NCBI GenBank assembly: GCA_035627515.1
Contig: DASPLQ010000012.1
Span: 455,269-519,268, forward strand
Source of the DNA: Vitreimonas sp.
Lineage (GTDB): Bacteria > Patescibacteriota > Microgenomatia > UBA1400 > PJMF01
Direction: 5' to 3'
DNA length: 64,000 bases
Part shown: positions 3,041 through 48,581 of the stretch, piece after piece
Layout of the letters: every line of letters begins with the position of its first letter
How positions within the stretch are numbered: the stretch's first letter is position 1
Position numbers and translations under genes: made by a program
The notes under the pieces: generated by a model
The model's input: the letters and a program-made list of their open reading frames with translations, nothing else
Database searches by the model: none
What the model was told of the DNA's origin: nothing

Positions 3041-3059
3041 GCACGGTCGATTATACTGC

Positions 3060-4076: not shown

Positions 4077-4086
4077 CCACACAACT

Positions 4087-4120: not shown

Positions 4121-4145
4121 TATAGATTCACACTAAACTAATACA

Positions 4146-4553: not shown

Positions 4554-4597
4554 TTTACTATTTCTCCTTATGTAGCTGGTTATATTATACATAACAA

Positions 4598-5197: not shown

Positions 5198-5212
5198 AAT
5201 TACTATCTTATG

Positions 5213-5623: not shown

Positions 5624-5625
5624 GG

Positions 5626-6018: not shown

Positions 6019-6019
6019 A

Positions 6020-6394: not shown

Positions 6395-6423
6395 GATGTG
6401 AATTATACCATTTTTTATGATGG

Positions 6424-6783
6424 CTAGAACATAATCTCTTGGCCAATGACAATTTCTACCACCTGAACTATCCAATAGGCAATAAACATGATGATATAAC
6501 CAGCCGCGGCGGTAGTGATAATGGATTTGGCTTCATCCTTACCTTTACTACCACTTTGAATAAACTTAAAGCCAGCATAAATAATCAACAAAAAGAGAAT
6601 AATGCCAGCTAACACAAACAAGTTGCTGACCAAAATATTGATGAGTTGAGTGGGTTGAGCGTAAACGCTTTTAACTGTGGCTTTGCCTGGACCAAGTGTC
6701 AAACAATTGCCCAGATCAATTCCCGAGACACCGGGGTCACACCCAGGGGCAGCAGCTAATAAACTTAACGTAGACAACAGCAT
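6424..6783 (-). CDS. T4SS-type pilin-like protein, paralog 8. It is the first gene of the array.
   Basis: Signal peptide MLLSTLSLLAAAPGC. Core FKFIQSGSKGKDEAKSIITTAAAGYIIMFIAYWIVQVVEIV. The C-terminus resembles the orphan pilin at 16159-16599. Confidence 0.55.
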   Translation of the reverse strand: MLLSTLSLLAAAPGCDPGVSGIDLGNCLTLGPGKATVKSVYAQPTQLINILVSNLFVLAGIILFLLIIYAGFKFIQSGSKGKDEAKSIITTAAAGYIIMFIAYWIVQVVEIVIGQEIMF

Positions 6784-6832
6784 ATGTGTGATATTATAAG
6801 TCTTAACTGCTTATTTACCAAACAGGAAACGC

Positions 6833-7387
6833 ATGACTGCTCAGTTGGATACAGATAAGATATTGCTCTCTCGATTAAAAGCGGGTGATCCAGCCGCTGT
6901 CCAAGAGTGGTTCCAAACCTATCACGCTAAGTTAGTCCGTTTTATAGCTGCTAAAGTTACCAATTCCACTGATGCCGAAGAATTAGCTCAAGAAACCTTC
7001 ATCAACTGCTTGAAACATTTACCGTTATTCCGAGGTGAGTCGCAAATTTGGACGTGGATGCAAAGTGTAGCCCGTCATGAAATTGCTGATTACTTCCGTA
7101 AAAAATACGCTAAAAAAGCGTTAAATGTTTTACCTCTCAGTGAGTTAATTGGCACTGAGCCGGTGGCTGATGCTCACGAACTAGCTGAAAAAGTCAAAGC
7201 CACTCTCAAAAAAATGACAGCCGAAGCCCAAGAATTATTGTGGCTGAAGTATGTCGATGGCAAGAAAGTTGCCGATATTGCTCTAGAGTTGGGGCGCAGC
7301 GTCAAAGCCGTGGAGTCAGATTTATTTAGAGCTCGTGTGGAGTTTAAGGCACTATATGCCGAAATCGATACTGCTGCCACCCGCTGA
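6833..7387 (+). CDS. ECF (sigma-70 family, sigma-24-like) RNA polymerase sigma factor, divergent from the pilin array.
   Basis: Region-2-like ETFINCLKHLPLFRGESQIWTWMQSVARHEIADYFRKK. Region-4 HTH LLWLKYVDGKKVADIALELGRSVKAVESDLFRARVEF. Confidence 0.75.
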   Translation: MTAQLDTDKILLSRLKAGDPAAVQEWFQTYHAKLVRFIAAKVTNSTDAEELAQETFINCLKHLPLFRGESQIWTWMQSVARHEIADYFRKKYAKKALNVLPLSELIGTEPVADAHELAEKVKATLKKMTAEAQELLWLKYVDGKKVADIALELGRSVKAVESDLFRARVEFKALYAEIDTAATR

Positions 7388-7553
7388 TTTTTTGGGTAAA
7401 CTGCAAGCTGAGGCTGCGCGGCAAGCTCGGCTGCATGAACATCGTTTTTTCCCCCCGCAACTGGATTTTTTAACCTCGTTTATTGGTCGATATCCCTGGC
7501 AAACGAGTGGAGCCTTAGCGTTGCTAACGGCTTTAGTATTGGAGTTGCTGTGA
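7356..7553 (+). CDS. Small hypothetical protein with a C-terminal hydrophobic segment, overlapping the sigma gene 3' end. Possible anti-sigma factor. Start uncertain.
   Basis: ORF in another frame overlapping the sigma stop. Single TM ALALLTALVLELL. Position immediately after an ECF sigma gene is typical for anti-sigma factors. No motif support. Confidence 0.2.
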   Translation: MPKSILLPPADFLGKLQAEAARQARLHEHRFFPPQLDFLTSFIGRYPWQTSGALALLTALVLELL

Positions 7554-7903
7554 CAAATCGATCTTTACTAAGCTGGAGCTTTTCACTGCTTTATTCCCTG
7601 GCACAAATTACACAGGGATTGTTATTGCACCCTTACCAAACGATGCAGTCTCTGGTTCAGGATAAAGTTTTTGTGTGGATGACACTATTGCCGGCAGTGG
7701 TGTTAGCAATGGTCACAGTTGGATGGCGGTTTGTGATCGTGCCGGTAGTACGATTGGTTTTTTCCTGCCAGGCCACTGGCTTTATTGGATGCGATTTTCT
7801 ACCCTTTATTTCGAATACCCTGACATTCTTCTGTATTTATTGGCAGGTGCTATTGATTTATTTGCTGTTTAGATTTGATTGGGTGTTTGAAAACGACACC
7901 TAA
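7550..7903 (+). CDS. Hypothetical polytopic membrane protein.
   Basis: 117 aa with 3-4 hydrophobic helices. Start overlaps the previous ORF by 4 nt. Confidence 0.35.
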   Translation: MTNRSLLSWSFSLLYSLAQITQGLLLHPYQTMQSLVQDKVFVWMTLLPAVVLAMVTVGWRFVIVPVVRLVFSCQATGFIGCDFLPFISNTLTFFCIYWQVLLIYLLFRFDWVFENDT

Positions 7904-7935
7904 AACCAGCGTGCTTGCCTATGGCCTTGTGACCA

Positions 7936-8337
7936 CTACGCAGCTTTGGGCACAGCGGCAGATGACGGTAAATGCTGTTTGATTTTGGCTAAAATATCTT
8001 CTAACGACATATCGCTTTTGACGATGTAATCAATAGCCCCGAGTTTTAAGCCCTTATCAATATCTTCACGTTGCCCTAAGTTCGAGGCGATAATGACAGG
8101 AATTTTTTTCCAGGTAGGATTACTACCAATATCAGTTAAGACTGAGAAGCCATCTTTAATCGGCATCATTAAATCTAATAAAATGACATCGGGTTGGCTA
8201 ACTTTGAGCGCCTCAATCGCTTCATTGCCATCGGCAGCTAATACTACTTCGTAACCGGCTTTAGCTAACTTTACGCGATAGGCATTGCCTAAAAACTTAT
8301 CATCCTCGGCTACTAAAATCTTAAACATATTTACCAC
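7936..8337 (-). CDS. Stand-alone response regulator receiver (CheY-like REC) protein.
   Basis: ILVAEDD...(phospho-acceptor context)...VILLDLMMPIKDGFSVL...IPVIIASN...DYIVKS. Confidence 0.8.
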   Translation of the reverse strand: MVNMFKILVAEDDKFLGNAYRVKLAKAGYEVVLAADGNEAIEALKVSQPDVILLDLMMPIKDGFSVLTDIGSNPTWKKIPVIIASNLGQREDIDKGLKLGAIDYIVKSDMSLEDILAKIKQHLPSSAAVPKAA

Positions 8338-16158: not shown

Positions 16159-16599
16159 TTAGAAAATGGTGACGCCGAGGATAATCTCCACGATTTGCAT
16201 GATCCAGTAAGCGCAGAATAACATCATGAAACCGAGAATAGCAGCGGTGATGCGCTGGCGACCTGAGTCAATCGATTTTTTAGATGCGGCTCCACTCAGC
16301 ATCTCGAAGCCACCCCAGACAATCATCACAAACAAAATCAGGCCGGCAATGGGGAAGGCAAATAATAAAAACCGAGAGATGAAACCACCGGGGGTGGAGA
16401 GTTCATTAGCAACCGGAGAGTTCATAAACTTCAAGGGGTTTAAGGCGTCGAGAGTAGCTTTATCAACTTTATCGAAGTCACGCAAAGCATCAGCAGGTGG
16501 GTTACTACCCATAGGACTTGCAGCCAAAATCTGGCTGGGTAAAAGCATTGCTAAAAAATTAAGTAGTATAGATAGAGCAATCAAAACACTTTTTTTCAT
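16159..16599 (-). CDS. T4SS-type pilin-like protein, orphan paralog outside the main array. Start moved to MKKSVLIAL; the ORF track gives 16614.
   Basis: Signal peptide MKKSVLIALSILLNFLAMLLPSQILAA. Core WGGFEMLSGAASKKSIDSGRQRITAAILGFMMLFCAYWIMQIVEIILG. Confidence 0.55.
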   Translation of the reverse strand: MKKSVLIALSILLNFLAMLLPSQILAASPMGSNPPADALRDFDKVDKATLDALNPLKFMNSPVANELSTPGGFISRFLLFAFPIAGLILFVMIVWGGFEMLSGAASKKSIDSGRQRITAAILGFMMLFCAYWIMQIVEIILGVTIF

Positions 16600-16603
16600 A
16601 GCT

Positions 16604-17659
16604 TTATGATCCAAAACCAGGAATTTGCAGGATACTAACTCCGATAAATTGTAAGCCGGCTACTGAGAATAATGTGAACAATAAACCTACCACTGCAGAA
16701 GTTAACATATCTTTGGCTTCGCTGGTGCGTTTAGGATCACCCTGACTGATAGCGAACATGAAGCCCGAACTTAGACTCAATAACACCGATGTCCCGGCAG
16801 ATACAGAAATGCCGATCTTGAGAATACTTTGAATTAAGTCAGTAGGATCAGTTGATAAACAACCCACAGCTGTCCAAATACCATCAGACTCTAAGCAGCT
16901 CGTGCATTTGCCATAAGCAGCAGTACTTTCAGGAATCTGTTTACAGAGTTCAAAGTCATAGAGTTCTGAGGAAGCTTTTGCCAGGTGGACACCACAAATA
17001 AATTCATCTTGGCCAGTGATATTGCTGCCTAAAATGCCTCTATTTCCTCGCAGTTCCAGCCGACTAATGTTGTCTTTTTTAAAGTTACCGCTTACGCCTT
17101 CCCACTCAGTGATTAAATAGCCATTATCCCAATTACACTTAAAATTTGAACTTTTACTAATTCCATCCCATTCACCTTCAAACACTTTTTCCAAACCATC
17201 TTCTAATTCACCGGTAACTGCTACACCAACAAAAGTACCTACACCAGGCACCGCAGTCCCAATGGTCCCACCAGCTATGGCTTCTAGTTCTTCAAAACTA
17301 TCATTAGTCCGTTGTTGGCTCACGTGACAGTTTTCAGTTTGTTCATCACTACTCGGTGTGGTGGCTAAGACGGCATATTCCAAAACCATACCTTTTGGTA
17401 ATTGGTGAAGGGTACTGGGTTTGCCGTCGTCCGTAGAACCTTGGGTTTTATAAATAATATCTCCGGTCTTAGTATCACGGAAAATAAAAGTACAATTACA
17501 GGCAGCAGGATTGGTGCTACAACCAAAATCACTCATGGCTGGAGTTTCAGCAAAAACGAAAGAAGGGGTTAGCAAAAGGACACTGGGTACGAAAAGAGCC
17601 ACCAAAAAACGAGCAAGTGAGCGAAAAACTTTTCTTGTCACCCCTGTATTGTATCGCAT
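16604..17659 (-). CDS. Secreted Cys-rich protein fused to a C-terminal pilin-like domain. Possible minor or tip pilin.
   Basis: N-terminal signal anchor, then an extracellular domain of about 250 aa with 14 or more Cys. C-terminus ISQGDPKRTSEAKDMLTSAVVGLLFTLFSVAGLQFIGV matches the pilin core with two TM helices. Confidence 0.5.
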   Translation of the reverse strand: MRYNTGVTRKVFRSLARFLVALFVPSVLLLTPSFVFAETPAMSDFGCSTNPAACNCTFIFRDTKTGDIIYKTQGSTDDGKPSTLHQLPKGMVLEYAVLATTPSSDEQTENCHVSQQRTNDSFEELEAIAGGTIGTAVPGVGTFVGVAVTGELEDGLEKVFEGEWDGISKSSNFKCNWDNGYLITEWEGVSGNFKKDNISRLELRGNRGILGSNITGQDEFICGVHLAKASSELYDFELCKQIPESTAAYGKCTSCLESDGIWTAVGCLSTDPTDLIQSILKIGISVSAGTSVLLSLSSGFMFAISQGDPKRTSEAKDMLTSAVVGLLFTLFSVAGLQFIGVSILQIPGFGS

Positions 17660-33792: not shown

Positions 33793-36129
33793 ATGCTTGA
33801 TCCAAATCTAATGCTTGCTATGTTGATTTCTTGGTTTTTCACAGCCTTGTGGATACTATTAGCCTTGGTGTTGATTGGTGCTTTGTGCTATGTCTTGTTT
33901 CAGTTTTATCGACATCGCAATCGGGAAGAGTATGCCTTAGATTTTGTGACCTTGATGGTCAGATTACCTAAGGATAATGAAATCAAAATTGATGCCGCTG
34001 AACAAATGTTTGCTGGCTTATACTCACTCAAAAAAACGGGCTGGTTTAGTTGGTTCAAGAATGAAGAAGTGTTCTCGTTTGAAATTGTGGCTCTCAAAGA
34101 AAAGATTGCTTTTTATGTAAATTGTCCACGCAAAATCCGCGATTTAGTTGAGAAACAAATTCACGGTGCTTATCCTAATGCGGAAATTAAAGAAGTAGAT
34201 GAAGTGAATATTTTTAGCGAAAAAGGCAAAGTTGCTTTTACGAGTGTTAAAACTGAAAAAGCAATTTATCTGCCCATCAAAACCTACAAAGATTTGCCAA
34301 CCGATGGTTTATCACTTTTGACTTCAGCATTATCTAAAATGGGCGAGGGTGAAGGAGCAGTGGTGCAAATCTTATTACGTCCAGAGGGTAGAGGTTGGCA
34401 GAAAAAAGGTCGTAATTATATTCAAAAAGAAAAGAAACGTGAGGCCGATCCCGAAAAAGCAACCTATGGTCATGATCCGAAAGAAATGGAAGCTATTGGT
34501 GCCAATGTTGAGAAACCAGGTTTTAGAGTTAGCATCAGAGTAGTAGTGTCATCTCCTAATGAGTACACTGCCGAGTCACATTTAAATAACATTGTCGGTG
34601 CTTTTGCTCAATACACTTCTGCCTACAATAACTTCAAACAAGTGGAACATATTTTCTTAAAGCCACTTTTTATGATTGATTTCATTTATCGTTACATGCC
34701 GATGATGAACATCAACACTTCCATTTTAAATATTGAAGAATTAGCGACACTATTTCACTTTCCCAATAAAACTGTTGAGACGCATCACATTCAGTGGCTA
34801 AATGCTAAAAATGCTCCAGCTCCAGATAAAATTCCTACTACCGGCATGTTGTTGGGTGTATCGGCGTATCGTGGCGAAAAACGTGAGGTCCACATGGATC
34901 TCAATGACCGTCGTCGTCACATGTACATCATTGGAAAAACGGGTACCGGTAAATCAGAGTTTTTAAAAGAGATGATTTTGCAGGACATTGAAGCTGGACA
35001 TGGCGTATGTGCGATCGACCCCCACGGTGAGTTTATTGAAGATATTTTGCAACTGATGCCGCCAGAGCGGGCTGAAGACGTGATTTATTTCAATCCTTCA
35101 GATCTTGATCGGCCGATGGGCTTGAACATGATGGAGGCAGATACCGAAGAACAAAAACACTTTGTGACCAGTTCCATCATCGGTTTGATGTACAAGCTAT
35201 ACGACCCGCACCGCACAGGTATTATCGGTCCGCGGTTTGAGCACGCCATCCGGAATGCGATGTTGACGATCATGAGTAAACCAGGCACCACCTTTATCGA
35301 GTTAGTGCGGTGTTTGACCGATAGTAAATATGTGGAGGAGTTATTGCCTTTTGTTAAAGATCCAGTGGTGCGTCGCTACTGGACTGACCAAATTGCCCAA
35401 ACGTCTGATTTTCACAAATCAGAAGTCTTGGACTACATCGTTTCTAAGTTTGGCCGGTTTGTGACCAATAAAACTATGCGGAACATCATTGGTCAGCCGT
35501 CCAGTGCTTTTAACTTCCGGCAAGCCATGGATGAAAAGAAAATCATTCTTTGTAACTTATCCAAAGGTATCTTAGGTGAAGAAGACGCCAAATTTTTAGG
35601 TCTGATTTTAGTGCCTAAAGTATTGACTGCGGCTATGAGTCGGCAGGATATTGGCATGGACCAGCGCCACGACTTTTTCTTATACGTGGACGAGTTCCAA
35701 AACTATGCTACCGAAGACTTTGCAGTCATTTTGTCAGAGGCTCGGAAATACCGGCTCAGTTTAATTGTCGCTAACCAGTTTATCGGTCAGATTGACGAAG
35801 AGATTAAAAATGCTGTTTTTGGTAACGTCGGTTCGATTGTATCTTTCCGGATTGGTGTTCCCGACGCCAACTTCTTGCAACACGAGTTTAGCCCCACCTT
35901 TAATGAAGGTGACTTAACTAACATCGAAAAATATCACGTCTACATGAAGACCATCGTCAACAACGAACCGGTTCCGCCATTCAGTATGTCACTTGAAAAA
36001 GATATGGACCAAGTCAAAGCTCGGATGAACCCCAAAATGGCTGAGATGATCAAGCAACTCAGTCGTCTCAAATACGGCAAAGATCGCGAGAGTGTAGAAG
36101 CTGAGATGAATGTGCGAGCGAAGTTGTAG
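33793..36129 (+). CDS. Membrane-anchored T4SS P-loop ATPase (VirB4/TraC- or VirD4-like; DUF87/FtsK-HerA superfamily).
   Basis: N-terminal TM helices (LISWFFTALWILLALVLIGALCYVLF). Walker A IIGKTGTGKSEF followed by AIDPHGEF. Walker B FFLYVDEFQNYAT. 778 aa. Confidence 0.6.
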   Translation: MLDPNLMLAMLISWFFTALWILLALVLIGALCYVLFQFYRHRNREEYALDFVTLMVRLPKDNEIKIDAAEQMFAGLYSLKKTGWFSWFKNEEVFSFEIVALKEKIAFYVNCPRKIRDLVEKQIHGAYPNAEIKEVDEVNIFSEKGKVAFTSVKTEKAIYLPIKTYKDLPTDGLSLLTSALSKMGEGEGAVVQILLRPEGRGWQKKGRNYIQKEKKREADPEKATYGHDPKEMEAIGANVEKPGFRVSIRVVVSSPNEYTAESHLNNIVGAFAQYTSAYNNFKQVEHIFLKPLFMIDFIYRYMPMMNINTSILNIEELATLFHFPNKTVETHHIQWLNAKNAPAPDKIPTTGMLLGVSAYRGEKREVHMDLNDRRRHMYIIGKTGTGKSEFLKEMILQDIEAGHGVCAIDPHGEFIEDILQLMPPERAEDVIYFNPSDLDRPMGLNMMEADTEEQKHFVTSSIIGLMYKLYDPHRTGIIGPRFEHAIRNAMLTIMSKPGTTFIELVRCLTDSKYVEELLPFVKDPVVRRYWTDQIAQTSDFHKSEVLDYIVSKFGRFVTNKTMRNIIGQPSSAFNFRQAMDEKKIILCNLSKGILGEEDAKFLGLILVPKVLTAAMSRQDIGMDQRHDFFLYVDEFQNYATEDFAVILSEARKYRLSLIVANQFIGQIDEEIKNAVFGNVGSIVSFRIGVPDANFLQHEFSPTFNEGDLTNIEKYHVYMKTIVNNEPVPPFSMSLEKDMDQVKARMNPKMAEMIKQLSRLKYGKDRESVEAEMNVRAKL

Positions 36130-37848: not shown

Positions 37849-38226
37849 TTAAAAATTTGCGTCAGCAGGCGTCTGAGCGGCAGCCTCATACTCTTTAATC
37901 ACCTGTTGGCAGTATTGATAGCGAGCGTACTCAAAGGCTTTTTGGTGGATGGGTTGTTTGTGTTCACCGACTTCCACACTGGAACCAAGGACGTTGCCCA
38001 CGTGTGAACCGACTTCTTGTGAACGTGTAGAAAGTATCTGGAGCTGTGAACCAGCACTGCTACTAAGTTGCGCAACTGGGAGCTTGTCGCGGAATTGAAA
38101 AAGCGCCGTTTGGGCGTTTACCATCACTTGAGCTGGCAACACACCCCGATTTAAAGCGGTATACGCACCCACGCCTAAGATCACGAGTATCAAGCACAGT
38201 AATAATAAAGCTTTAACCATTTTCAT
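37849..38226 (-). CDS. Small secreted or anchored hypothetical protein.
   Basis: N-terminal signal anchor MKMVKALLLLCLILVILGVGAYTAL. 125 aa. Confidence 0.35.
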   Translation of the reverse strand: MKMVKALLLLCLILVILGVGAYTALNRGVLPAQVMVNAQTALFQFRDKLPVAQLSSSAGSQLQILSTRSQEVGSHVGNVLGSSVEVGEHKQPIHQKAFEYARYQYCQQVIKEYEAAAQTPADANF

Positions 38227-38258: not shown

Positions 38259-39470
38259 TTACTCGTAGCGGAGGGCTTCGATGGGTGAGAGCTTAGCGGC
38301 ACGGCGAGCGGGCGCTGCCCCAAAGACTAAACCAACTACCGTCGAAACACCAAAGGCCAAGATCACGGCCTGCATTGTGACTCGGGCGGGGAAGTAGGGT
38401 TGGATAGCGAGGGAACCTAGATAGGCAATGGCTAAGCCAATCAAGCCACCAATGATGGATAACAAGGCTGCCTCGATTAAAAACTGTAATAAAATTAAAT
38501 TTGGTGTCGCGCCCAGAGCTTTTCGCAAGCCGATTTCTCGGGTACGCTCAGTCACTGACACCAACATGATGTTCATGATACCAATGCCGCCCACCACCAG
38601 CGAGATGGCAGCAATGCCGCCCAAACCAGCCGTCATTGCCCCCAACACACTATTAATCGTGTTCAGTAATTGGGTTTGATCAAAGACGCTAAACTCATCT
38701 TCATCAAGTTCTTTCAGTAAGGTTTTTTCGATGCCAGCTTTGGCTTCCTCTAGTGACTTACCATCTTTAATTTTGAAGGTGAAGTTATCGATCAAATCAC
38801 GATTAAAATCATCGGCCAAAGTCTCGAGTGGAATGTAGATATAGTTATCAAAACTAGGTCCACCAAATCCGCCGCCTTTTTCTTTAAGAACGCCGCTGAC
38901 TTTATATGATCGTCCATCAAGACGAATGGTTTTATTGACGGGATCAACTTCTTTAAAAAGTTCTTCCGCAATTTTAGTGCCTAGCATCACCACCCGTTCG
39001 CCACTGACTTCATCGGTGTCGCTAAACCATTTGCCTTTTTCAGCAGGGCTGTTGGTGAGAATTTCATATTCATTGGTGGTGCCATACAGAGTGACGCGCT
39101 TGGTGACGTTGCGATATTTAGCTTCGCCGGTACCCAACACCGCCGCTGCACCTTCATCGATGTACTCGCGGTTGTTGCGCATCACGTCGTTGAGTTGCCG
39201 TATTTTGAGTAAGCCACGAGTGGTATCAATTAAGGTTTGTTCTTGGTTCCCAAAGCCCCCATCTTCGCCAAACGGATTACCTGGAACTACATAGAGTGTA
39301 TTACTTCCCAAATCTGCAAACTGCTCGGTAATATATGCCTGTAAGCCGGTGCCAATACTCGTTAATAACACCACCGAGCCGACGCCAATAATCACCCCTA
39401 ACATCGTCAGAAACGAGCGCGTTTTGTTGACAAAAATAGCCTTGAGGGCGATTTGGAAAATACTACCCAT
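38259..39470 (-). CDS. ABC transporter permease, MacB/FtsX family.
   Basis: N-terminal TM, large extracytoplasmic domain, then a C-terminal FtsX 3-TM bundle (LGATPNLILLQFLIEAALLSIIGGLIGLAIAYL). Confidence 0.8.
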   Translation of the reverse strand: MGSIFQIALKAIFVNKTRSFLTMLGVIIGVGSVVLLTSIGTGLQAYITEQFADLGSNTLYVVPGNPFGEDGGFGNQEQTLIDTTRGLLKIRQLNDVMRNNREYIDEGAAAVLGTGEAKYRNVTKRVTLYGTTNEYEILTNSPAEKGKWFSDTDEVSGERVVMLGTKIAEELFKEVDPVNKTIRLDGRSYKVSGVLKEKGGGFGGPSFDNYIYIPLETLADDFNRDLIDNFTFKIKDGKSLEEAKAGIEKTLLKELDEDEFSVFDQTQLLNTINSVLGAMTAGLGGIAAISLVVGGIGIMNIMLVSVTERTREIGLRKALGATPNLILLQFLIEAALLSIIGGLIGLAIAYLGSLAIQPYFPARVTMQAVILAFGVSTVVGLVFGAAPARRAAKLSPIEALRYE

Positions 39471-40179
39471 GTTTGCGTTTTCCTGTCAGTTTGCCGGCTT
39501 TGGGCATCTTAGTATCTTTAATAATCACCCCGTCCTTAAACACGACTAGTCGTTTAGCGATGGCCGCCACATCATCCTCGTGCGTAACCATAATGATGGT
39601 ACTACCTTCAGCATGCAACTCAGTTAACAATTTTTTGATATCCTCGCCACTTTTGGAATCAAGATTGCCGGTGGGCTCATCAGCAAAAATTAAACTGGGA
39701 TTATTGACCAGTGCCCGAGCGATGGCCACGCGCTGTTGTTGACCACCGGAGAGTTGGGCAGGTGTATTGTGGAGACGGTCACCTAAGCCGACGCGTTCCA
39801 ACATCGCTTGGGCTCGCTTCCTGCGGTCAGCTTCGCCCACGTTAGCGTAGACCAAAGGCAGCGCCACATTATCCAGCGCCGAAGTGCGAGCTAACAAATT
39901 AAACTGCTGAAACACAAACCCAATCTCTTGATTGCGCAGGCGAGCGCGTTCCACCTCATTAAACTTAGTTACATCTTTGCCTTTGAGTGAAATGACGCCG
40001 GTACTGGGTTCTGCCAGCATACTCGCCACTTGCAAAAATGTTGACTTACCGGAGCCAGACGGACCCATCACCGCCAAAAACTCACCCATTTCCACGTCGA
40101 TGCTGATGCCATCTAAAGCGCGGATGGTGCTATCACCCAGGTGGTAGTGCTTGGTGACGTTATCGAGTGCTAGTAACAT
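39463..40179 (-). CDS. ABC transporter ATP-binding protein (MacB/LolD-type).
   Basis: Walker A MGPSGSGKST. Signature LSGGQQQRVAIARAL. Walker B LIFADEPTGNLD. Confidence 0.85.
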   Translation of the reverse strand: MLLALDNVTKHYHLGDSTIRALDGISIDVEMGEFLAVMGPSGSGKSTFLQVASMLAEPSTGVISLKGKDVTKFNEVERARLRNQEIGFVFQQFNLLARTSALDNVALPLVYANVGEADRRKRAQAMLERVGLGDRLHNTPAQLSGGQQQRVAIARALVNNPSLIFADEPTGNLDSKSGEDIKKLLTELHAEGSTIIMVTHEDDVAAIAKRLVVFKDGVIIKDTKMPKAGKLTGKRKHG

Positions 40180-40207: not shown

Positions 40208-40618
40208 TTAAGTTGTTAGATAATGCGGCGGGCGGTTACCAGCTTGATACGATAATATTTTATTTAGTATTTTCAAAATTTCGGTGAGATTGCTTTCTAA
40301 GAATGTAAATTTTTCAGTTTTAATGTAATTGAGATGATGAGAAATAATAAGTTGGGTTTCTAATTCAACTGCTGAAGCGTAAGCATAGCGTAGGAACTGA
40401 TGATATTCAGCCATCTTTTTTGATCGACCGCACCCTTCGGCAATATTAGAAGCTACTGACACCGATGCTCTTCGCATCTGTGAGGTTAATCCAAACATTT
40501 CAGTTCTTGGATATACATTTGTAACTGCATAAATATCGAAACAGAGCTGCATAGATTTCTGCCAAACAATTAGGTCTTTATACGATTTAACTTTGGGATA
40601 AGTAGACATTAAAGGCAA
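40208..40618 (-). CDS. Four-helix-bundle protein (23S rRNA intervening-sequence protein family).
   Basis: FGLTSQMRRASVSVASNIAEGCGR plus helical repeats typical of this family. Confidence 0.55.
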   Translation of the reverse strand: MPLMSTYPKVKSYKDLIVWQKSMQLCFDIYAVTNVYPRTEMFGLTSQMRRASVSVASNIAEGCGRSKKMAEYHQFLRYAYASAVELETQLIISHHLNYIKTEKFTFLESNLTEILKILNKILSYQAGNRPPHYLTT

Positions 40619-40735: not shown

Positions 40736-41782
40736 TCACTGTGGAATCAACACTTCATCAGTGAGGTTAAGACCCCGCGTGACCTCGACTGTATCTTCAG
40801 TTTCTAAGTCGACCTCAATTTCGCGTTCTTCATAGGTGAACTCACCCGTGCGGACATCAACCACGGTTTTGTCATCGCGGTCGCGCGTGGCATCAAGTGG
40901 AATAACTAATACCTGTTTTCTAGTATCTACCGTAATGTTGACGTCACCATTCATACCCAAGCGCATTTTTTGGAGCGCGTCAGGTTGTTCGATGGGGAAC
41001 TCCACAATAAAGACGGTGCCAGATGAACTTTGGCTGCTTTTGAAATCAATACTTTTGACGTAGGTGGTAATTTTTTCGTCAGGATAGGCATCCAACTCGA
41101 TCTCAGCTACTTGGCCAACTTGAATTTGACTAATGTCTGCCTCATCAATGCCAGCGCGGAAGACTAAGGTGGCAGGATCGACGAGTTCGAAAGCGTCAGT
41201 TAGGCCTAGATTCACGCCAGTGACGGTTGTGGGAGCAGCAGTTAAGATGCCAGCAAAGGGGGCAGTAATGACGGTGTTTTTGATGGCAATGTCACGAATC
41301 TCCACGTTTAATACAGTGTCATCAAGATCCCATTGTTCTTTATCGATGCGGCGACGAGTAGGGAGGGTCTCGACGTGATAATCAGTGGCGTCTTGGGTGG
41401 CTTCCCAATCCCAACGTTCACGCATGTAAGCGTTTAAATCTTGTTGCAGTCGTTTTTCCAGCTCTCTGCGATCGATGGTGGCAATAGTTTGCCATTTTTT
41501 AACCATGTCACCAGGCTGAGCACCAAGGTAAACAACTTTACCTCCCGCCGCGAAGCGGAGGCTGGCTTTTTGTTTGGCATCAACCACACCAGAAACTTGA
41601 ATGGTTTTGGTCAAATCTTGAGTTCGGGGTTTTTCGAAGGTTAAGTCTGGCTTAGCGGCCTCGGCGCGGCGATACTGCCAGTAGCCACCCCCGGCGGCAA
41701 TTAACAGCACAATCAGGATCAGTTTCCAGCGGCGGCGAATGAGGTGCCAAGTTCTAGTAGGCAACGACAGCAAAAATTTCAC
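40736..41782 (-). CDS. Efflux periplasmic adaptor / membrane-fusion protein (HlyD/MacA-like).
   Basis: N-terminal TM. Beta-barrel/lipoyl-like segments. Operon with the ABC ATPase and FtsX permease. Confidence 0.55.
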   Translation of the reverse strand: MKFLLSLPTRTWHLIRRRWKLILIVLLIAAGGGYWQYRRAEAAKPDLTFEKPRTQDLTKTIQVSGVVDAKQKASLRFAAGGKVVYLGAQPGDMVKKWQTIATIDRRELEKRLQQDLNAYMRERWDWEATQDATDYHVETLPTRRRIDKEQWDLDDTVLNVEIRDIAIKNTVITAPFAGILTAAPTTVTGVNLGLTDAFELVDPATLVFRAGIDEADISQIQVGQVAEIELDAYPDEKITTYVKSIDFKSSQSSSGTVFIVEFPIEQPDALQKMRLGMNGDVNITVDTRKQVLVIPLDATRDRDDKTVVDVRTGEFTYEEREIEVDLETEDTVEVTRGLNLTDEVLIPQ

Positions 41783-42486: not shown

Positions 42487-42561
42487 CACATTCACTTTTC
42501 CCTTCATACAAAAAACCCTGCAGTGTTACCACCGCAGGGCTCAATTTCAAAACTATTCAGC

Positions 42562-43491
42562 TTATAAAATCAGTAAGGCAAGGACTGCTCCACCGACAAT
42601 GGCGAGTAAGCCTGGGCCGATGAACTTCTTGAAGGTATCAGCTGCACCTGAGCGAGGTAACTCACTTGGTAAGGGCTCGGTTCCATCAACGGTTTGAGTC
42701 GGCACGTAGGTGGTTGTAGAAGGTGGCGTACAAGAAGCACTTTCTGGATTAGACTCTAAGCGACAGACGCGACCTTGGTTGGTGTCATAACAGGCATGAT
42801 CAGGATTACTACAGTCACTATCAGTACCACAGGCTTGGTTACAGTAAGCGGTACTACAGCTGGCGCTGGTTGGATTAGTAGCTAAGCGACAGTTCCCGTT
42901 GTAACAGATGAAGTTACTATTGGCTTGAGCACATTGTGTGTTGTTCTGACAGGTACTGTTACAAGAGTAGGTTGTAGTTGTCGTTGGTGATGGCGATGGG
43001 CTCGTACTTGGTGAAGGACTTGGGCTCGTGCTTGGTGAAGGTGAAGGGCTAGTACTCGGTGATGGACTAGGACTGGTGCTCGGTGATGGGCTGGGTGAGG
43101 TAGATGGTGAGGGACTTGGAGAACCAGCCACTACAAATGATAAGGAACAATTGGCAGTTTGAACCACTGCAGCTTGAGGACGTGAGTCTGGAGCAGTAGG
43201 AGCGACCGGAGTTTGATCCACGCGTTGGCGGATGGCAGTTAAGACACCGGCCATGGATAACACAAAGAACAGGGTTAAGCCCAACACAGTCATCACTGAC
43301 CGAGCATCTATTCCGAAAATTTTGCGAGGTTGTTTACCAGCAGCAGGGAAGCCCTTGAAGTTGGTACCACCGGCATTACCACCACCAGCGCCACTAGCCG
43401 TCATGACTGGTGTGGCAGGAGCTACCGGAGCAGCGCCAGTAGTAACTGGTTGTTTGGTGTAGCTAGTTGGTGTTGGTGTCGCGTTAATCAT
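42562..43491 (-). CDS. Surface protein with an N-terminal signal anchor, a (SPSPSPST)n linker, two Cys-rich modules and a C-terminal hydrophobic anchor preceded by LPRSG.
   Basis: TM VMTVLGLTLFFVLSMAGVLTAI. Repeat SPSPSTSPSPSPSTSPSPSPSTSPSPSP. Modules YSCNSTCQNNTQCAQANSNFICYNGNCRLATNPTSASC and NQACGTDSDCSNPDHACYDTNQGRVCRLESNPESASC. Tail ELPRSGAADTFKKFIGPGLLAIVGGAVLALLIL. Confidence 0.5.
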   Translation of the reverse strand: MINATPTPTSYTKQPVTTGAAPVAPATPVMTASGAGGGNAGGTNFKGFPAAGKQPRKIFGIDARSVMTVLGLTLFFVLSMAGVLTAIRQRVDQTPVAPTAPDSRPQAAVVQTANCSLSFVVAGSPSPSPSTSPSPSPSTSPSPSPSTSPSPSPSTSPSPSPSTSPSPSPTTTTTYSCNSTCQNNTQCAQANSNFICYNGNCRLATNPTSASCSTAYCNQACGTDSDCSNPDHACYDTNQGRVCRLESNPESASCTPPSTTTYVPTQTVDGTEPLPSELPRSGAADTFKKFIGPGLLAIVGGAVLALLIL

Positions 43492-43507
43492 GATTGGTAT
43501 CCATTAG

Positions 43508-46500
43508 TTATGGTGTTACCCCTGTCCCAAACGGGTTTTCATATGAGTGACAACTGGTATCATCTTGAGTGGTACAGATTCGGCATTGTGCAGCGTGCAG
43601 ACCAGTCTTGGTGATCGTGTAATTATTAGACACTCGACCAGTCATCTGTAAGTTGACGAGCACACCATCTGGCTCTACGATCCGGGCTTGGTACTTACCA
43701 CTTTGAGTGATGGCAGCTACTTCGCCACAAGTAATGCGGATGGCGTTGCCCATGGCAGGGTCTTGAGTAGCTGGAGCACTTGGGTTGGTTACATTAGTCA
43801 TTTGAATTGACAAACATTGTGGTCCGACTGGTGCCTGACAACTACCACTGGTTGGATTCTCAGGTAAGCGGCAGCGTTTGCCGGTGGCGCCCGTGTCGAT
43901 ACACTTCAGGCGGGAGTCAGCAGTGGCACATTGAGCATCATTTCCACATTCACTGTTACAGAAGTACCCAGGTGGTAAGGATGGAGGAGGACTCTCCTGA
44001 GTTACTGTTACTGGAGGTATGTTAGGCGCTGGAGGCTGGATCACTGGAGGTTGAGTACTACAGTTCGCAGCACATTGGTAGATAGTCATGGTGCCTTCAC
44101 CTGGTTTGCCCAGAGCACATTCTTTTCGACCATCGCCGTTGACATCTTTACAAACGTAATCATTAGGATTATCGCGGGTGGTACAAGAGTACACAGTGGA
44201 GTTGAAGCCACCACCGTCAGTGCGAGTATAAGAACCACTGCCGTTGAAGGTACCGCGACAGTCACATTGAATGACACCACAGCCGCTTGGCAGTTGACTC
44301 TTCATGTTCGCAGAGTTTGGTAAAGGTCCATTAACAAAGCCAGAGCCAGTGAATTTCCCGGTATTACAAGCACCGCCGAGACTACCATCGCAAGCATAAC
44401 AAGCATATTCACAAGTTTCGCCAACACTACCACCATAGGTAGGTGTCCCACCAGCAGAACTAGCACAATAACCAGCTCCATCACCAGTAAGATCACAGCG
44501 ACCACTAGCGCACTGATTACTCGTAGAACAGAGACAGTTGCCACCACGGCCGGTCGTAGCACTACAGTTAACATTATTACCAGTAGTGTTAGTGCCCCCG
44601 CTAACAACTCTTACACACTCACCATTTTGATAATTAGAACCGTTAGCACAAGCGCGAGTCAAAGCACCAGTTTGGGAATGATAACACTCCCAACTATTAG
44701 CTTTATTATCACTAAAAGTTGCTCCTTCACACACATTTCCTTTTTTACAACCACCGCTTGTCCAGGCACAGCCAGGATAAGCATTACAGGCAGTAGCACC
44801 AGAATCAAAGTTTCCACAGTTGCCGTTTGGATCACTGCCAATAGGTGTATTACATTCACCATTAGTCATCACCCAACCTTCTTTACATTGGAACTCAATT
44901 GATTTGCTTGAGCCTGTGCCTACAGTACAGCGTTCTTTGTTAGGACCACCGTCACTGGTGCCAGAGTCACGGGTACAAGCTTTTATTTCTTTACAAGAAT
45001 TGTCTTCAAAAATACATCCAGACCGTGCGTTACAAGCGCTGGCGCTGGTATCGTAGTTACCACATGAGCCTTGGGGATCTTGGCTGGTGGCTACACAACT
45101 CCCTGCATTATTTACATAACCAGTCTTACATTGTGCAGTAGTGGCACCGGATGATTGATGAACACAGAGTTCACCATTTGCAGGTGCGTTTAAGCCAGAA
45201 ATTGAAATAGTTTGTTTAGTACAGTAAGGTAAACCATTGGGAGCAGTACCTGTTGGATTAAGTTCGACGTTATTACACTCTTTAGGTAAAGTAGAACTAA
45301 TAGAGAAGGTGTGCTTAACTCCAGCAGTGCCGCCATTTTTACCAGTTTGAGTACACTCACAAGTAGTGTCATTGAGTTTAGTAGCTCCACCAGGACAAAC
45401 TACGTTTACAGCTTGGGCACAAGTTTGCCCATTAGTAGCCACTTTACCTGTGTTAGGACCAGAACTACAAATACAGCCATTTGGATTAGTACAAGTAGCA
45501 CCCTCTGGGATGAGACTTCGAGCATTAGGATCAACGCCGCCAGTGGCACTGCTGCGACAAACTCCGCCATTAGACATAATCTTGCCCGCATCTAATCCAC
45601 CAATACATTTACAGCCGCCAGCATTGTTACACGTTTCGCCAGAGTTAATTTCCTTAATAGTGGCAGGTGCGGTGGAAGTTGCAGCTTTACAACTAGTTCC
45701 ATAACCAATCACTTTGCCTTTATCTGGGCCATCTAAACACTCACATCCAGGAGTTTCTAAACACTGTCTGCCAGCTAAGATACCAATTCGCCCTGAAGGA
45801 GTGGTGGTGCCACCAGTTCCTGTGCTAGGAGGAGTTGTACCGCCACCGCCACCACCACAAGTGGCGCCGTTAGCAATTGAACCACGCGTGTTGTTAGCGC
45901 TACACAAACAGCCCCCGGCATTGTTACACACAGCGCCAGGACCTAAATCACCTGCACATTGATACGTACAGGAAGCGGCACAAACGCCCCATTGACCATC
46001 GGCGTTACCACTACAGTTACCAGTTTTACATTCTAAGACACCGCCGCGACAACAAGCGCCGCCAATATCTACACTATTAGGGGTGCCTGAGGCTGGATTA
46101 CAAGCTGAGCCAACAGCGCCACCGCCACCACCCGTAGCTGGAGGAGTTGTTGTACCACCTGTAGCTGGAGGAACTGTGCCACCACAAGCGACACCAGTAT
46201 TAGTCCACCAACCATTACAATTTGATCGATCACAGCGCCACATGGTCTTAGAATCAGTATTACAACGACTTTGACCTGTAGCTACGCCATCACAATCATT
46301 GGGATTACCACAACCACCGCCACCCCCACCGTTGTCAGCAGGAGGAGGTGGCGGCGGAGCGGGAGGGGATCCACACGTACCAGTTTCCTGCCAAGAGCCA
46401 TTATTACAACGAAAGGTTTTTCCTAAAGCAGTATTACAATGTTCTGAACCTGAAGTTGCCCAGCCATCACATTTAGCGCCAGCAGCTTGGTTCACAATAT

Positions 46501-46720
46501 TAGTGTCATTTTGAGTCAAATAAAAGCCTGCGCCTGCACCTAAGAGGACTAAGACTAAAACAGTCACACCGGCGAAGATCTTCCAATATTTTTTTAGTGC
46601 CGCAAAGCGACTAGGAGTTTTGTTAAAGGAGCTGCCCATACTACTAGTAGGGGTGCTTGAAGAGGGAGTGCTTGGCATTCCGGAAACTGAGTTTGGAGCA
46701 GCGGTAGTGCTGTTTAACAT
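43508..46720 (-). CDS. Giant (1070 aa) Cys-, Gly- and Thr-rich secreted protein with internal repeats. Likely a surface adhesin or structural protein.
   Basis: N-terminal TM anchor YWKIFAGVTVLVLVLLGAGAGFYL. More than 100 Cys residues. Recurring CNNAGGC[KL]C...G.[IV]..NG..C units. C-terminal module YFCNSECGNDAQCATADSRLKCIDTGATGKRCRLPENPTSGSC shared with 42562-43491. Confidence 0.55.
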   Translation of the reverse strand: MLNSTTAAPNSVSGMPSTPSSSTPTSSMGSSFNKTPSRFAALKKYWKIFAGVTVLVLVLLGAGAGFYLTQNDTNIVNQAAGAKCDGWATSGSEHCNTALGKTFRCNNGSWQETGTCGSPPAPPPPPPADNGGGGGGCGNPNDCDGVATGQSRCNTDSKTMWRCDRSNCNGWWTNTGVACGGTVPPATGGTTTPPATGGGGGAVGSACNPASGTPNSVDIGGACCRGGVLECKTGNCSGNADGQWGVCAASCTYQCAGDLGPGAVCNNAGGCLCSANNTRGSIANGATCGGGGGGTTPPSTGTGGTTTPSGRIGILAGRQCLETPGCECLDGPDKGKVIGYGTSCKAATSTAPATIKEINSGETCNNAGGCKCIGGLDAGKIMSNGGVCRSSATGGVDPNARSLIPEGATCTNPNGCICSSGPNTGKVATNGQTCAQAVNVVCPGGATKLNDTTCECTQTGKNGGTAGVKHTFSISSTLPKECNNVELNPTGTAPNGLPYCTKQTISISGLNAPANGELCVHQSSGATTAQCKTGYVNNAGSCVATSQDPQGSCGNYDTSASACNARSGCIFEDNSCKEIKACTRDSGTSDGGPNKERCTVGTGSSKSIEFQCKEGWVMTNGECNTPIGSDPNGNCGNFDSGATACNAYPGCAWTSGGCKKGNVCEGATFSDNKANSWECYHSQTGALTRACANGSNYQNGECVRVVSGGTNTTGNNVNCSATTGRGGNCLCSTSNQCASGRCDLTGDGAGYCASSAGGTPTYGGSVGETCEYACYACDGSLGGACNTGKFTGSGFVNGPLPNSANMKSQLPSGCGVIQCDCRGTFNGSGSYTRTDGGGFNSTVYSCTTRDNPNDYVCKDVNGDGRKECALGKPGEGTMTIYQCAANCSTQPPVIQPPAPNIPPVTVTQESPPPSLPPGYFCNSECGNDAQCATADSRLKCIDTGATGKRCRLPENPTSGSCQAPVGPQCLSIQMTNVTNPSAPATQDPAMGNAIRITCGEVAAITQSGKYQARIVEPDGVLVNLQMTGRVSNNYTITKTGLHAAQCRICTTQDDTSCHSYENPFGTGVTP

Positions 46721-46898
46721 TGTTTAAATTTTCTTTAACACACAACAACGCCAAGAAACTTGGCTGAGTATCAGAATACAAAGTTTTCGATACCCGAGTC
46801 AAGGGGGAGAATGGGGTATTTTCAGGCAGAAAAAGCCCAAACAGATCACAATATATGTTCAATCTGTGACAGAGTATATCAACAATGAAAAGATGAAG

Positions 46899-48581
46899 TT
46901 ATTCGCAAGAAATTTCCTGAGCTTCTTCAATCTGTTGAGCCAACCAGAAACTCCACGCACCAGCTAGGATGAAGAAGAATCCCCCGACCAACAATGCTAA
47001 GGTTGTTTCAGTAGAACCTGAGACCGGAATGGCACTCTTCGTAGAAGGAATACTCGTTCGGCCGGAACTAGTAGCAGTGCTCGATTTAGTAGCCGTTTGG
47101 GTACTCTTAGTAGCCGTGCCGCCGATGGGGAAAGGATTACCAGAACCAAAAGGTGAAGGGCTGGGCGAAGGTGAAGCTTTAGCACTACTCGTCGAGGTTT
47201 TAGTGGTGCCACCAGTGCCAGGGGTACTAGCTTGAGCTAAGGTCGTTTTTGGTTGCACTGTGAAGGTTTGAGTCTTAGTCACTTCTTTACCTGTGGCAGG
47301 ATCGGTATACGAATAGGTGACAGTATGTTCACCAGGCTCTAACTGTTGAGAAAGAGTGGCGATATCAAGAGAGAAGCCACCGTTACCATCGGCCACCAGT
47401 TCTTCATAAATTTGGGTTTCAGAATGAACTTCAATTTTGACACGGACACCAGGGGCAGCTTTACCAGTGATCACTGGAGTGGTGGTGGTTACGATTTGCT
47501 CAGTGGTTTTTTGCAAGTCCACTACGGTAGCAGTAGTAGTAGAAGCAGAAGCCGAACTACTCGTACTGACTGTGGCACTGCCGCTACTGACACGAGTGAC
47601 AGTTGAACTGCCACTAGAAACTGCAGTAGTTGCAGCGGCACCGCTGGCATTGGCTAAATCAGACAAACCGCCACCTTGAGTACTGACAATGGGACTAGGT
47701 GAGGGCAAGATGGCTGGCTCGGCGCTAGCCATGGGCGTAGTACCCGTTGGCGTACCATTCGCTGTGGTCATGGTATTAATAGGGGCAGCGGGAGCAACAG
47801 TGATAGCTTGACCAAAGGTGATGTTAGGGACAGGTTGAGCTTGAGCCACGGTCGTGTTTAATTGAGAGGTTTGGGTGGTTGAGGGGCCTTGGACAGTAAT
47901 ATTCAGATTATCAGTATCGGTGACTGTAGCGTAGCCCGAACCATCAGCTAAGCGAGCATTTGACAACGGCACGGCCCAACTACATGAAGATTTGACGAGT
48001 GAAGACATCTCGCCCATACTCGGCATCGAAACATACACCACGCTGCCTTCAGCCGGGGTGCCAGCTTCAGTGTTGACACAACCATACACTGTTTTAGCCG
48101 CGGAAGGTGTGCCACTGCGCTTGGCAGTCGTGATGGTAAACGGAGCGCCATTATTATCAAATGTCGCACCGGAACCGGTGCCTAAAGTGTAGTAGTAAGT
48201 GACACCAGGCTCCAGACCGCGGACGGTAACGTGATGAAGGGGATAGCTGCCCACATTACCGGAGAGTTGATCACGATCGTCGCTAGCTTGGGATTTAAGA
48301 CTCTTACTGTCTTTACCATATTTAATAAAACCCGCTGTACTCTCATCGGTTAAAAATGAAACAGTAAAACTGGTATCAGATACATTGGAAACGCGAATAT
48401 TTTTAGGTGTAGTCTGTGGGGTAGCTCGAGGGGAAAAATTTAAGCCATTGCCACTACTAAAGAAAACCAAACCAGCGCCGAGGGCGACCACTAACACAAA
48501 CAACCCCAGCAGGGTAGGAATTTGCTTTTGCAAAAACGACTTTTGAGTAGGCAGCGTCGGCATAAAAAACACAGGCATCAA
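46899..48581 (-). CDS. Surface protein with an N-terminal TM, FN3/PAP-N-like beta domain, Ser/Thr-rich stalk and a C-terminal TM anchor.
   Basis: IRVSNVSDTSFTVSFLTDESTAGFIKYG...HHVTVRGLEPGVTYYYTLG (FN3-like). Long S/T/A-rich low-complexity region. C-terminal LALLVGGFFFILAGAWSFWLAQQ. Confidence 0.4.
   Translation of the reverse strand: MMPVFFMPTLPTQKSFLQKQIPTLLGLFVLVVALGAGLVFFSSGNGLNFSPRATPQTTPKNIRVSNVSDTSFTVSFLTDESTAGFIKYGKDSKSLKSQASDDRDQLSGNVGSYPLHHVTVRGLEPGVTYYYTLGTGSGATFDNNGAPFTITTAKRSGTPSAAKTVYGCVNTEAGTPAEGSVVYVSMPSMGEMSSLVKSSCSWAVPLSNARLADGSGYATVTDTDNLNITVQGPSTTQTSQLNTTVAQAQPVPNITFGQAITVAPAAPINTMTTANGTPTGTTPMASAEPAILPSPSPIVSTQGGGLSDLANASGAAATTAVSSGSSTVTRVSSGSATVSTSSSASASTTTATVVDLQKTTEQIVTTTTPVITGKAAPGVRVKIEVHSETQIYEELVADGNGGFSLDIATLSQQLEPGEHTVTYSYTDPATGKEVTKTQTFTVQPKTTLAQASTPGTGGTTKTSTSSAKASPSPSPSPFGSGNPFPIGGTATKSTQTATKSSTATSSGRTSIPSTKSAIPVSGSTETTLALLVGGFFFILAGAWSFWLAQQIEEAQEISCE

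Follow-up and report, generated by a model that had tools for sequence, protein, structure and literature searches.

Bacteria of the candidate phyla radiation (CPR), or Patescibacteria, presumably live in attachment to other microbes, but to our knowledge the molecules they use for this, pili apart, have been characterised in few cases. Large exported Cys-rich proteins, variable between strains and with a proposed role in attachment, have been described in the Peregrinibacteria, a CPR lineage whose genomes encode sortase (PMC4736985). Sortase is near-ubiquitous in the Microgenomates, while the MdbA/VKOR disulfide machinery is enriched in the CPR (PMC6744442). The Pam pili of CPR bacteria, including the Microgenomatia, make use of strand exchange, and their anchor protein PamR carries an N-terminal strand (10.64898/2026.03.03.709456). 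The locus considered here lies in a 64,000-nucleotide stretch (the window) of contig DASPLQ010000012.1 of assembly GCA_035627515.1 (positions 455,269 to 519,268), and comprises two adjacent genes coding for a Cys-rich protein of 1070 amino acids (aa), B1070, and a protein of 309 aa, A309. B1070 and A309 can be called, with considerable confidence, anchored surface proteins with a real and new module at their core. On balance, the pair is best read as a two-gene operon for a two-part cell-surface adhesin of a Microgenomatia-type CPR bacterium, in which A309 would provide the anchored stalk and B1070 the head.

Organisation of the locus

Three minus-strand open reading frames (ORFs) are present at exactly the coordinates reported in a preliminary description of the window:

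42562-43491, minus strand: ORF of 309 aa (A309)
43508-46720, minus strand: ORF of 1070 aa (B1070)
46899-48581, minus strand: ORF of 560 aa (C560)

An N-terminal hydrophobic helix is found by hydropathy in each of the three proteins. Their earlier designation as membrane-anchored extracellular proteins is supported, in that they are extracellular and associated with the membrane or wall. A309 and C560 also have a C-terminal hydrophobic helix in a hydropathy scan, and B1070 has the single N-terminal helix. The three genes had been taken for one surface-protein island; they instead form two units, the B1070-A309 pair and C560, the latter being part of a separate conserved cluster (see below). B1070 and A309 look like one transcription unit, as they are separated by a gap of 16 bp, with a promoter-like site upstream and a terminator-like hairpin downstream:

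46773..46802, minus strand: promoter-like site upstream of B1070 (consensus match only)
42513..42542, minus strand: terminator-like hairpin of 13 pairs, 7 of them G-C, followed by a T-run, 20 nt past the A309 stop codon
42414-42487, plus strand: tRNA-Ile with anticodon TAT (UAU), convergent with A309 and located between the pair and a HlyD-type adaptor gene

This tRNA-Ile(TAT) gene is the sole tRNA gene within the 64-kb window.

A family of six-cysteine modules

The two proteins share a Cys module of the form Y-x-C-N-S-x-C...C-R-L-x-x-N-P-x-S-x-S-C, which was located by regular expression and BLAST once in B1070 and twice in A309, as had been proposed. C560, which had been thought to share it, has three cysteines and no module. 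A profile of 40 positions was built from nine copies in B1070, A309 and P0002 (a protein with six tandem copies) and searched against 1.84 billion representative proteins. It matched 387 proteins at E<=1e-3, 138 at E<=1e-10 and 17 at E<=1e-30, and since so many proteins are matched, some of them this strongly, the module represents a genuine family, recurring far beyond chance. The module mostly occurs in two to eight tandem copies per protein, and all of the distinct full-length copies drawn from the best matches (295/295) have six cysteines, with the spacing C-x3-C-x5-C-x5-8-C-x3-10-C-R-L-x2-N-P-x-S-x2-C over ~40 aa.

Scans of the window proteins and ten relatives against Pfam and NCBIfam gave no model covering the module. 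Neither EGF nor any other Pfam family matches it in the 16 proteins scanned, the Cys spacing also being different from that of EGF, and a sequence search of the PDB with the module profile gave no match even at E<=10. Its absence from Pfam, NCBIfam and the PDB upholds the earlier view that the domain is undescribed and, judging from its sequence, it is a new domain family. In AlphaFold2 (AF2) models the module folds as a short helix and a beta-hairpin, with a predicted local distance difference test (pLDDT) score of ~95 in a B1070 construct and a mean of 87 for the two modules of A309. Foldseek comparison of the modelled module with the PDB returned nothing significant; the weak top matches (E 0.7-8, root-mean-square deviation 1.2-1.9 Å over ~30 residues) are knottin toxins and Dickkopf Cys-rich domains.

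Three architectures were observed among the module proteins: (i) tail proteins, in which modules are followed by an LPxTG-type tail; (ii) B1070-like proteins ending in a conserved domain of ~100 aa; and (iii) proteins with an N-terminal helix, a beta domain, three modules, a transmembrane helix and a long Pro-rich cytoplasmic tail. In all three architectures the modules adjoin the anchor to wall or membrane and would therefore fit a rigid stalk or spacer. The cytoplasmic tail of the third architecture bears a near-C-terminal motif, S-M-[LMV]-[DE]-R-[LI]-K-x-K-G-[IV], in P0074, P0099, P0110, P0130 and ~40 other proteins. In locus L031, a protein of ~830 aa encoded just upstream of the pair (5414-7960, plus strand) combines two six-Cys modules with Hint/PT-HINT domains (stored Pfam matches) and has 40 cysteines.

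The proposed stalk-anchor protein A309 and its putative sorting signal

The following elements were identified in A309:

43228..43296, minus strand: N-terminal transmembrane helix (aa ~66-88; hydropathy) with the conserved sequence 'LFFVLSMAGV'
43129..43149, minus strand: strand C115-S-L-S-F-V-V, the proposed docking strand, with the sole Cys outside the modules
43003..43122, minus strand: (SPSPSPST)x5 linker (aa 124-163; regular expression; Tandem Repeats Finder (TRF) periods 24/48)
42730..42969, minus strand: two tandem six-Cys modules (aa 175-212 and 213-254; profile match P0030, E 1.9e-25, in two stretches; AF2 pLDDT 87)
42565..42660, minus strand: C-terminal sorting-type signal, LPRSG (aa 278-282) plus 27 aa, hydrophobic from ~aa 289

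Orthologues with 42-49% identity and the same architecture (P0056, P0085, P0136, P0027, P0019 and P0026) conserve the N-terminal helix, which corresponds to the export signal or signal-anchor of LPXTG proteins. The 13 cysteines of A309 equal two sets of six plus one, the last being C115. In 70 distinct A-type sequences, the motif C-[TS]-L-[ST]-F-x-V retains the Cys in 100%, F(+4) in 80% and V(+6) in 86%. The sequence AP-x-AP-x-S-x-P-x-A stands before this strand of alternating hydrophobic residues, and a Pro-rich linker after it. The lipobox has the form L-[AS]-[GA]-C; judged against this form, a lipobox at the N-terminal Cys of A309 was rejected, the preceding residues (e.g. TAN-C, NNY-C) being unlike it. 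The linker consists of five perfect copies at the protein level, rather than the four counted previously, while the DNA is just 76-81% repetitive (TRF). Matches of the Pro/Ser linker to the NCBIfam models for TonB and SdrC were rejected as compositional.

The LPRSG pentapeptide near the C-terminus is followed by a hydrophobic segment, as in LPXTG proteins, and A309 ends in ...LALLIL, so that the tail without a positive terminus noted in the preliminary description is indeed present. Among the 150 top proteins of the family, 92 end in an LPx[TSA]G tail with the consensus LPxTGxxDWxxWLKAGLxxLGxGAxLLLLL, the pentapeptide being LPxTG in 53, LPxSG in 25 and LPxAG in 11. Exactly 25 residues follow the Gly in 72 of the 92 tails, and K or R occurs within the last eight residues of just three. 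Against the 15.9-bit cut-off of the TIGR01167 LPXTG_anchor model, the tail of one typical relative passes with 16.8 bits, with P0026 and P0016 reaching 15.5 and 13.7 bits, respectively. These comparisons of tail sequences support the LPRSG tail of A309 as a diverged copy of a family-wide LPXTG-like signal. DUF11, RrgB-type isopeptide, DUF7927, bMG10 and AgI/II C2 domains are found in relatives (Pfam/NCBIfam); DUF11, RrgB-type isopeptide, DUF7927 and AgI/II domains are typical of sortase-anchored adhesins and pilins. The named genome loci with this tail are labelled Woesebacteria, Pacebacteria or Patescibacteria, and the remainder of the 29 GTDB-species loci bear evident mass-submission labels.

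The proposed head protein B1070

B1070, to which the NCBI protein P0001 is identical, contains the following elements:

46517..46582, minus strand: N-terminal transmembrane helix (aa ~47-68; hydropathy), aligning with the transmembrane helix of the L031 orthologue
45404..45958, minus strand: type-I repeats (aa ~255-439), four diverged copies with a period of 44-46 aa
44615..45223, minus strand: type-II repeats (aa ~500-702), two full copies and one partial copy with a period of 82 aa
43838..43966, minus strand: six-Cys module (aa 919-961; regular expression, BLAST; profile match P0001, E 7.4e-12; pLDDT ~95)
43511..43837, minus strand: C-terminal (CT) domain (aa 962-1070), modelled as a beta-sandwich of FN3/Ig-like type and holding five conserved Cys

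The protein has 87 cysteines (8.1%); the figure of more than 100 given previously was a miscount. It carries no anchor of its own, and its lineage-specific Cys-rich ectodomain of ~830 aa consists partly of internal repeats, which in a self-comparison score above shuffled controls (maximum 64 in 30 shuffles), as had been anticipated. The type-I repeats follow the pattern x-G-x-x-C-x-N-x-x-G-C-x-C...G-K-[IV]...N-G-x-x-C, with diagonal scores of 78-85 (64-65 for the first copy). The type-II repeats hold G-x-C-G-N-[YF]-D...A-C-N-A...G-C and score 110 for residues 548-582 versus 630-664, and 65 for the third copy. The recurring CNNAGGCxC units of the preliminary description are thus real as repeats, but this exact motif occurs just twice, within the diverged four-copy repeat.

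The five cysteines of the CT domain (C969, C998, C1046, C1049 and C1057) are invariant in an alignment of the domain, which has 22 homologues among the related loci and family proteins. In the AF2 model the domain is a beta-sandwich with six strands of at least three residues. All of its top Foldseek matches in the PDB are FN3 domains, at the weak level of E 7e-3 to 0.1 and TM-scores of ~0.5-0.6 (best ~0.58), and the Pfam fn3 model has no match in B1070. The FN3 fold has seven strands.

Homology of B1070 to other proteins is confined to aa 915-1070, and segments of aa 70-900 have no relatives in the first 30 related loci and ~155 family proteins. The nearest orthologue, a 648-aa protein in L031, aligns over the last 145 aa (53% identity) and the transmembrane helix, while transporter proteins of the L031 genome are 54-76% identical to those of the window. 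Because the orthologue in so close a relative aligns only at the C-terminus and the transmembrane helix, the B1070 head is hypervariable in sequence and length (1070 vs ~648 aa). A search with the whole of B1070 in a word-indexed set of 5.8 billion proteins returned only the protein itself and P0002. For aa 310-890 that search missed even the identical self protein, so its null there is uninformative, and with the module alignment it gave no candidates; its nulls on Cys-rich or low-complexity queries are not read as absence. A scan of Joint Genome Institute (JGI) metagenomes with B1070 found no relative, nor did a PDB sequence search give a match. A Pfam NpwBP match (E 0.007, below cut-off) was rejected as compositional.

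The ORFs on the opposite strand, described earlier as repeat shadows, are wholly contained in long ORFs with homologues, consistent with shadow ORFs. Gene calls over B-type genes vary between databases: in L031 (8022-9995, plus strand) and L033 (1507-3480, plus strand) the JGI calls place several short other-frame ORFs over an intact 648-aa B-type ORF, and the Logan call for L032 has the full B-type gene, which points to the mis-calling of Cys-rich, low-complexity CPR genes. L034 belongs to the two loci most closely related to the window. Its B1070 orthologue (1227-3183, plus strand) is split over two overlapping frames (1227-2543 and 2338-3183), which may stem from a frameshift or sequencing error, from phase variation, or from the gene being a pseudogene.

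A further motif, [YF]-[LM]-[ST]-Q-x-[ST]-Q-[DE]-[LI]-R-Q-[QK]-A, occurs right after the N-terminal helix in B-type N-termini of loci L001-L029 (for example L001, 10001-11938). It is carried by head proteins and single-chain tail proteins and, in a looser form, by the transmembrane-anchored group-2 proteins P0099, P0110 and P0130, while B1070 has a degenerate version, FYLTQNDTNIVNQAA. This juxtamembrane motif may be a lineage-specific processing site.

A recurring gene pair with odd cysteine counts

The gene arrangement was compared in 29 GTDB-species loci sharing the tail, together with L031-L034, the nearest relatives. Most of the 29 species loci, as well as L031-L034, have a gene for a CT-domain protein with a tail-protein gene directly behind it; the gaps in most loci lie between a few and ~30 bp. 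Cysteines were counted between the first transmembrane helix and the tail. Complete CT proteins have an odd number in 24/24 cases in the species loci and window and in 11/11 in the representative set. The count is likewise odd in the tail protein after the CT gene (23/24, species loci and window) and in A-type tail proteins (50/50, representative set). Single-chain paralogues, which have a B-type N-terminus, a head, modules and their own tail, are even in 11/11 cases in the species loci, and in the representative set nine are even and two odd; the transmembrane-anchored group 2 is even in 36/37 (representative set). Parity is kept although the Cys counts run from 7 to 87. In 17 cleanly delimited CT proteins the CT domain accounts for five cysteines, with an even number in the remaining ectodomain; in four more the division is six and odd, taken to mean that the domain boundary included one Cys of a module. 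On these counts, pairing within each protein leaves one unpaired Cys in each partner. The existence of single-chain paralogues combining head, modules and tail further argues that head and stalk work together (the fusion, or 'Rosetta stone', argument).

In the proposed assembly, the N-terminal signal-anchor of A309 would take the chain across the membrane, and the LPRSG and hydrophobic tail would act as a sortase-type signal fixing the protein to the wall. The flexible (SPSPSPST)5 linker and the two rigid six-Cys modules would form the stalk. The strand with C115 would dock onto the CT domain of B1070, and the two chains would be locked by one inter-chain disulfide, suggested by the single leftover Cys in each partner. 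The anchored stalk would then display the variable B1070 head, which is presumed to bind host or partner cells, and it is in this sense that the assembly is inferred to be an adhesin. Tentatively, and with less confidence than is given to the two-part adhesin itself, the A309 strand might complete the six-stranded CT domain by donor-strand complementation, with the disulfide joining C115 to one Cys of the C-R-I-C strand.

Several observations weigh against this proposal. The inter-chain disulfide and the strand docking are drawn from Cys parity, gene adjacency and a model of the monomer, in which the last block of the CT domain has a pLDDT of 58, so that a short seventh strand may be missed. 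The loci are phylogenetically related, so that the parity counts are not independent events and their independence is overstated. The C-x-L-x-F-x-V motif is absent from a few tail proteins encoded after CT genes (L016, L018, L021 and L028), and the AP-x-AP-x-S-x-P-x-A sequence does not form a canonical signal-peptidase site. With regard to anchoring, A309 and its family lack the basic C-terminal end that canonical LPXTG signals have, and the A309 tail itself, with S where T is usual, has no match to TIGR01167. No sortase or Dsb/VKOR genes were found by Pfam in the 64-kb window. The flanks of the first 30 related loci likewise showed no sortase or Dsb/VKOR gene, the test there being the weak one of phmmer with SrtA as query. 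Searches of the window and these loci with SrtA and for a TLxTC motif gave nothing convincing for sortase.

Alternative explanations

The alternative that survives best is that B1070 and A309 each act alone as independent surface proteins. Their spare cysteines would then be free thiols, form homodimers or serve other chemistry, and their adjacency would stem from the duplication and recombination of surface-protein genes at one hot spot. The locus does contain one to three module proteins of variable type per species and diverges very fast, and the third-gene paralogues work as single chains. The order of CT and tail genes is nevertheless kept in most loci with their short gaps, and the odd-Cys rule fits exactly these two classes and not the paralogues. 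The B-like proteins, moreover, are without their own anchor, and the lone Cys of the A-type proteins sits in a conserved strand motif. Independent action is therefore considered appreciably less probable than the two-part adhesin.

A second alternative concerns the transporter genes downstream of the pair, which were identified by NCBIfam/Pfam:

40736-41782, minus strand: HlyD-type adaptor
39463-40179, minus strand: ATP-binding cassette (ABC) ATPase
38259-39470, minus strand: MacB/FtsX permease
37849-38226, minus strand: 125-aa protein, the last of the conserved downstream neighbours

B1070 and A309 could be cargo or clients of this MacB-type ABC system, being exported, released from the membrane or assembled with its help. 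In the window and in most of the 29 species loci alike, the genes downstream of the module proteins indeed run adaptor, ATPase, permease, small protein, in the same orientation as the module genes. The terminator-like hairpin, the opposite-strand tRNA-Ile and ~780 bp, however, separate A309 from the adaptor gene in the window, and seven unrelated genes intervene in L031, on which grounds the link between transporter and pair may be one of inherited gene order. The further neighbourhood (VirB4-like ATPase, LGT, GH3) is conserved too, again as inherited gene order might be, and the proteins have Sec-type N-terminal helices of their own. A client relationship is accordingly regarded as improbable.

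Within the transporter genes, a gene with a 23S_rRNA_IVP (four-helix-bundle) match (40208-40618, minus strand) is inserted between the adaptor and ABC ATPase genes; these two genes abut in most related loci, with no space for a further gene between them, and no 23S_rRNA_IVP match was seen in any locus.

Self-assembly into a paracrystalline, S-layer-like coat, which the preliminary description had put forward and which the large size and export of the proteins would allow, is highly improbable. No SLH or S-layer domain was matched in Pfam or NCBIfam, leaving the idea without evidence; the head is hypervariable between close relatives, unlike lattice-forming proteins, and a stalk-plus-anchor architecture is typical of adhesins. 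Least credible of all is an assembly or annotation artefact in which repeats were collapsed or joined as a chimera to give the 1070-aa ORF: B1070 is repetitive and of low complexity, and JGI metagenome contigs gave no close relative of it, but repeat collapse or expansion is unlikely since the DNA repeats across 42562-46720 are all short and just 62-83% identical, the ORF is unbroken across 3.2 kb, and its N-terminus, module and CT domain match orthologues in the correct order.

C560 and the pilus-platform genes

The two-part adhesin as favoured here does not include C560, which has the following domains:

46899..48581, minus strand: FN3/PAP_N (aa 58-144) and Big_13 (aa 359-442) domains (Pfam), with transmembrane helices at both ends

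Full-length homologues with 42-49% identity occur in 11 metagenome loci, and the gene order MurJ-PilN-PilO-136aa-C560 (46899-52104, minus strand, in the window) is present in 11/11 of these (L035-L045) where the locus is complete. Module and CT proteins were absent from the 11 C560-homologue loci, as were relatives of C560, PilN, PilO and MurJ from the 29 module loci. C560 is thus placed outside the pair, as it belongs to its own conserved five-gene cluster without module proteins and is absent from the module loci; its membership of a surface-protein island is not supported, given this separate cluster. The 'IPVSG' sequence of C560 was considered as an LPXTG-like motif and rejected, as it is not conserved in the homologues. 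C560 is co-located with PilN and PilO, as would be expected of the type IV pilus platform, and both of these have Pfam matches. With their FN3-like and Big_13 domains, the C560 homologues are candidates for a so far uncharacterised part of the type IV pilus platform in CPR bacteria.

Other features and affiliation of the window

In the window PilN and PilO occur without PilQ nearby, and the GC content in 2-kb windows is 36-49%, mostly 41-48%. Seven tandem T4SS_pilin (PF18895) paralogues are encoded at 2630-6475 (minus strand), and an eighth copy at 16159-16614 (minus strand) lies exactly at the Pfam cut-off. Together with a VirB4/TrwB-like ATPase (33793-36129), these paralogues look like a CPR-type type IV secretion set. 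The taxonomic labels of several records look wrong: the source metagenome-assembled genome is named 'Vitreimonas sp.', 'uncultured Pseudomonadales' stands on many syntenic loci (e.g. isolate HK-STAS-PATE-15) and 'Limisphaerales' on one, and the gene content and synteny of these records match Woesebacteria, Pacebacteria and Patescibacteria loci. Judging from gene content and neighbour loci rather than a phylogeny, the window probably derives from a Microgenomatia-type CPR bacterium.

Comparison with known systems

Inhibitor cystine knot (knottin) peptides, whose three disulfides are knotted as I-IV, II-V and III-VI, and Dickkopf/colipase and EGF-like modules resemble the module described here in their ~40 aa, six cysteines, short helix and beta-hairpin, and EGF repeats are similarly used in tandem as a rigid spacer. 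The module differs from all of these in its distinct Cys spacing and CRLxxNPxS signature, with no significant fold or sequence match. It represents a lineage-wide, undescribed six-Cys stalk module, with 387 protein clusters. With hidden Markov models (HMMs), thousands of CPR proteins now listed as 'hypothetical' would be better annotated; some of them are mis-called as shadow ORFs (L031, L033). The Cys-rich proteins of the Peregrinibacteria belong to a different CPR lineage, and no module, sorting-signal variant or paired-gene rule was defined for them (PMC4736985).

With the Pap/Fim and Pam pili, the proposed complex has in common an Ig-like domain seemingly without its last strand (six strands in the CT model) and a partner with an N-terminal strand of alternating hydrophobic residues followed by an anchor. 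It differs from them in that no chaperone-like gene lies next to the B1070-A309 pair. A disulfide lock has not been reported for the Pam pili, and the B1070-A309 complex would be 1:1 rather than a polymer. Homology to the Pam proteins was neither seen nor searched for, and Pam serves as a mechanistic precedent only. In the conserved head-plus-stalk gene pair, Cys arithmetic predicts a covalent heterodimer, and the hypervariability of the head between close relatives is as expected of a host-recognition or immune-evasion surface.

The Gram-positive LPXTG adhesins and pilins (MSCRAMM, AgI/II and RrgB-type) share with the proteins described here an export signal, a functional region, a stalk, and LPx[TS]G with a hydrophobic C-terminus. 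The tail here, however, has a fixed length of 25 residues, a conserved DWxxWLKAGL, and an LLLLL end free of basic residues. In the stalk, disulfide modules take the place of isopeptide or Rib/SHIRT-type domains, and the head and anchor are located on two polypeptides. The LPXTG-type signal without a basic end could be used to list the sortase substrates of the Microgenomatia. If the tentative version with donor-strand complementation and a disulfide lock is correct, CPR cells could swap hypervariable heads onto a conserved anchored stalk, a new form of surface display joining two mechanisms known only separately. In this comparison, the B1070/A309 proteins would be a new variant of the sortase-type surface adhesins.

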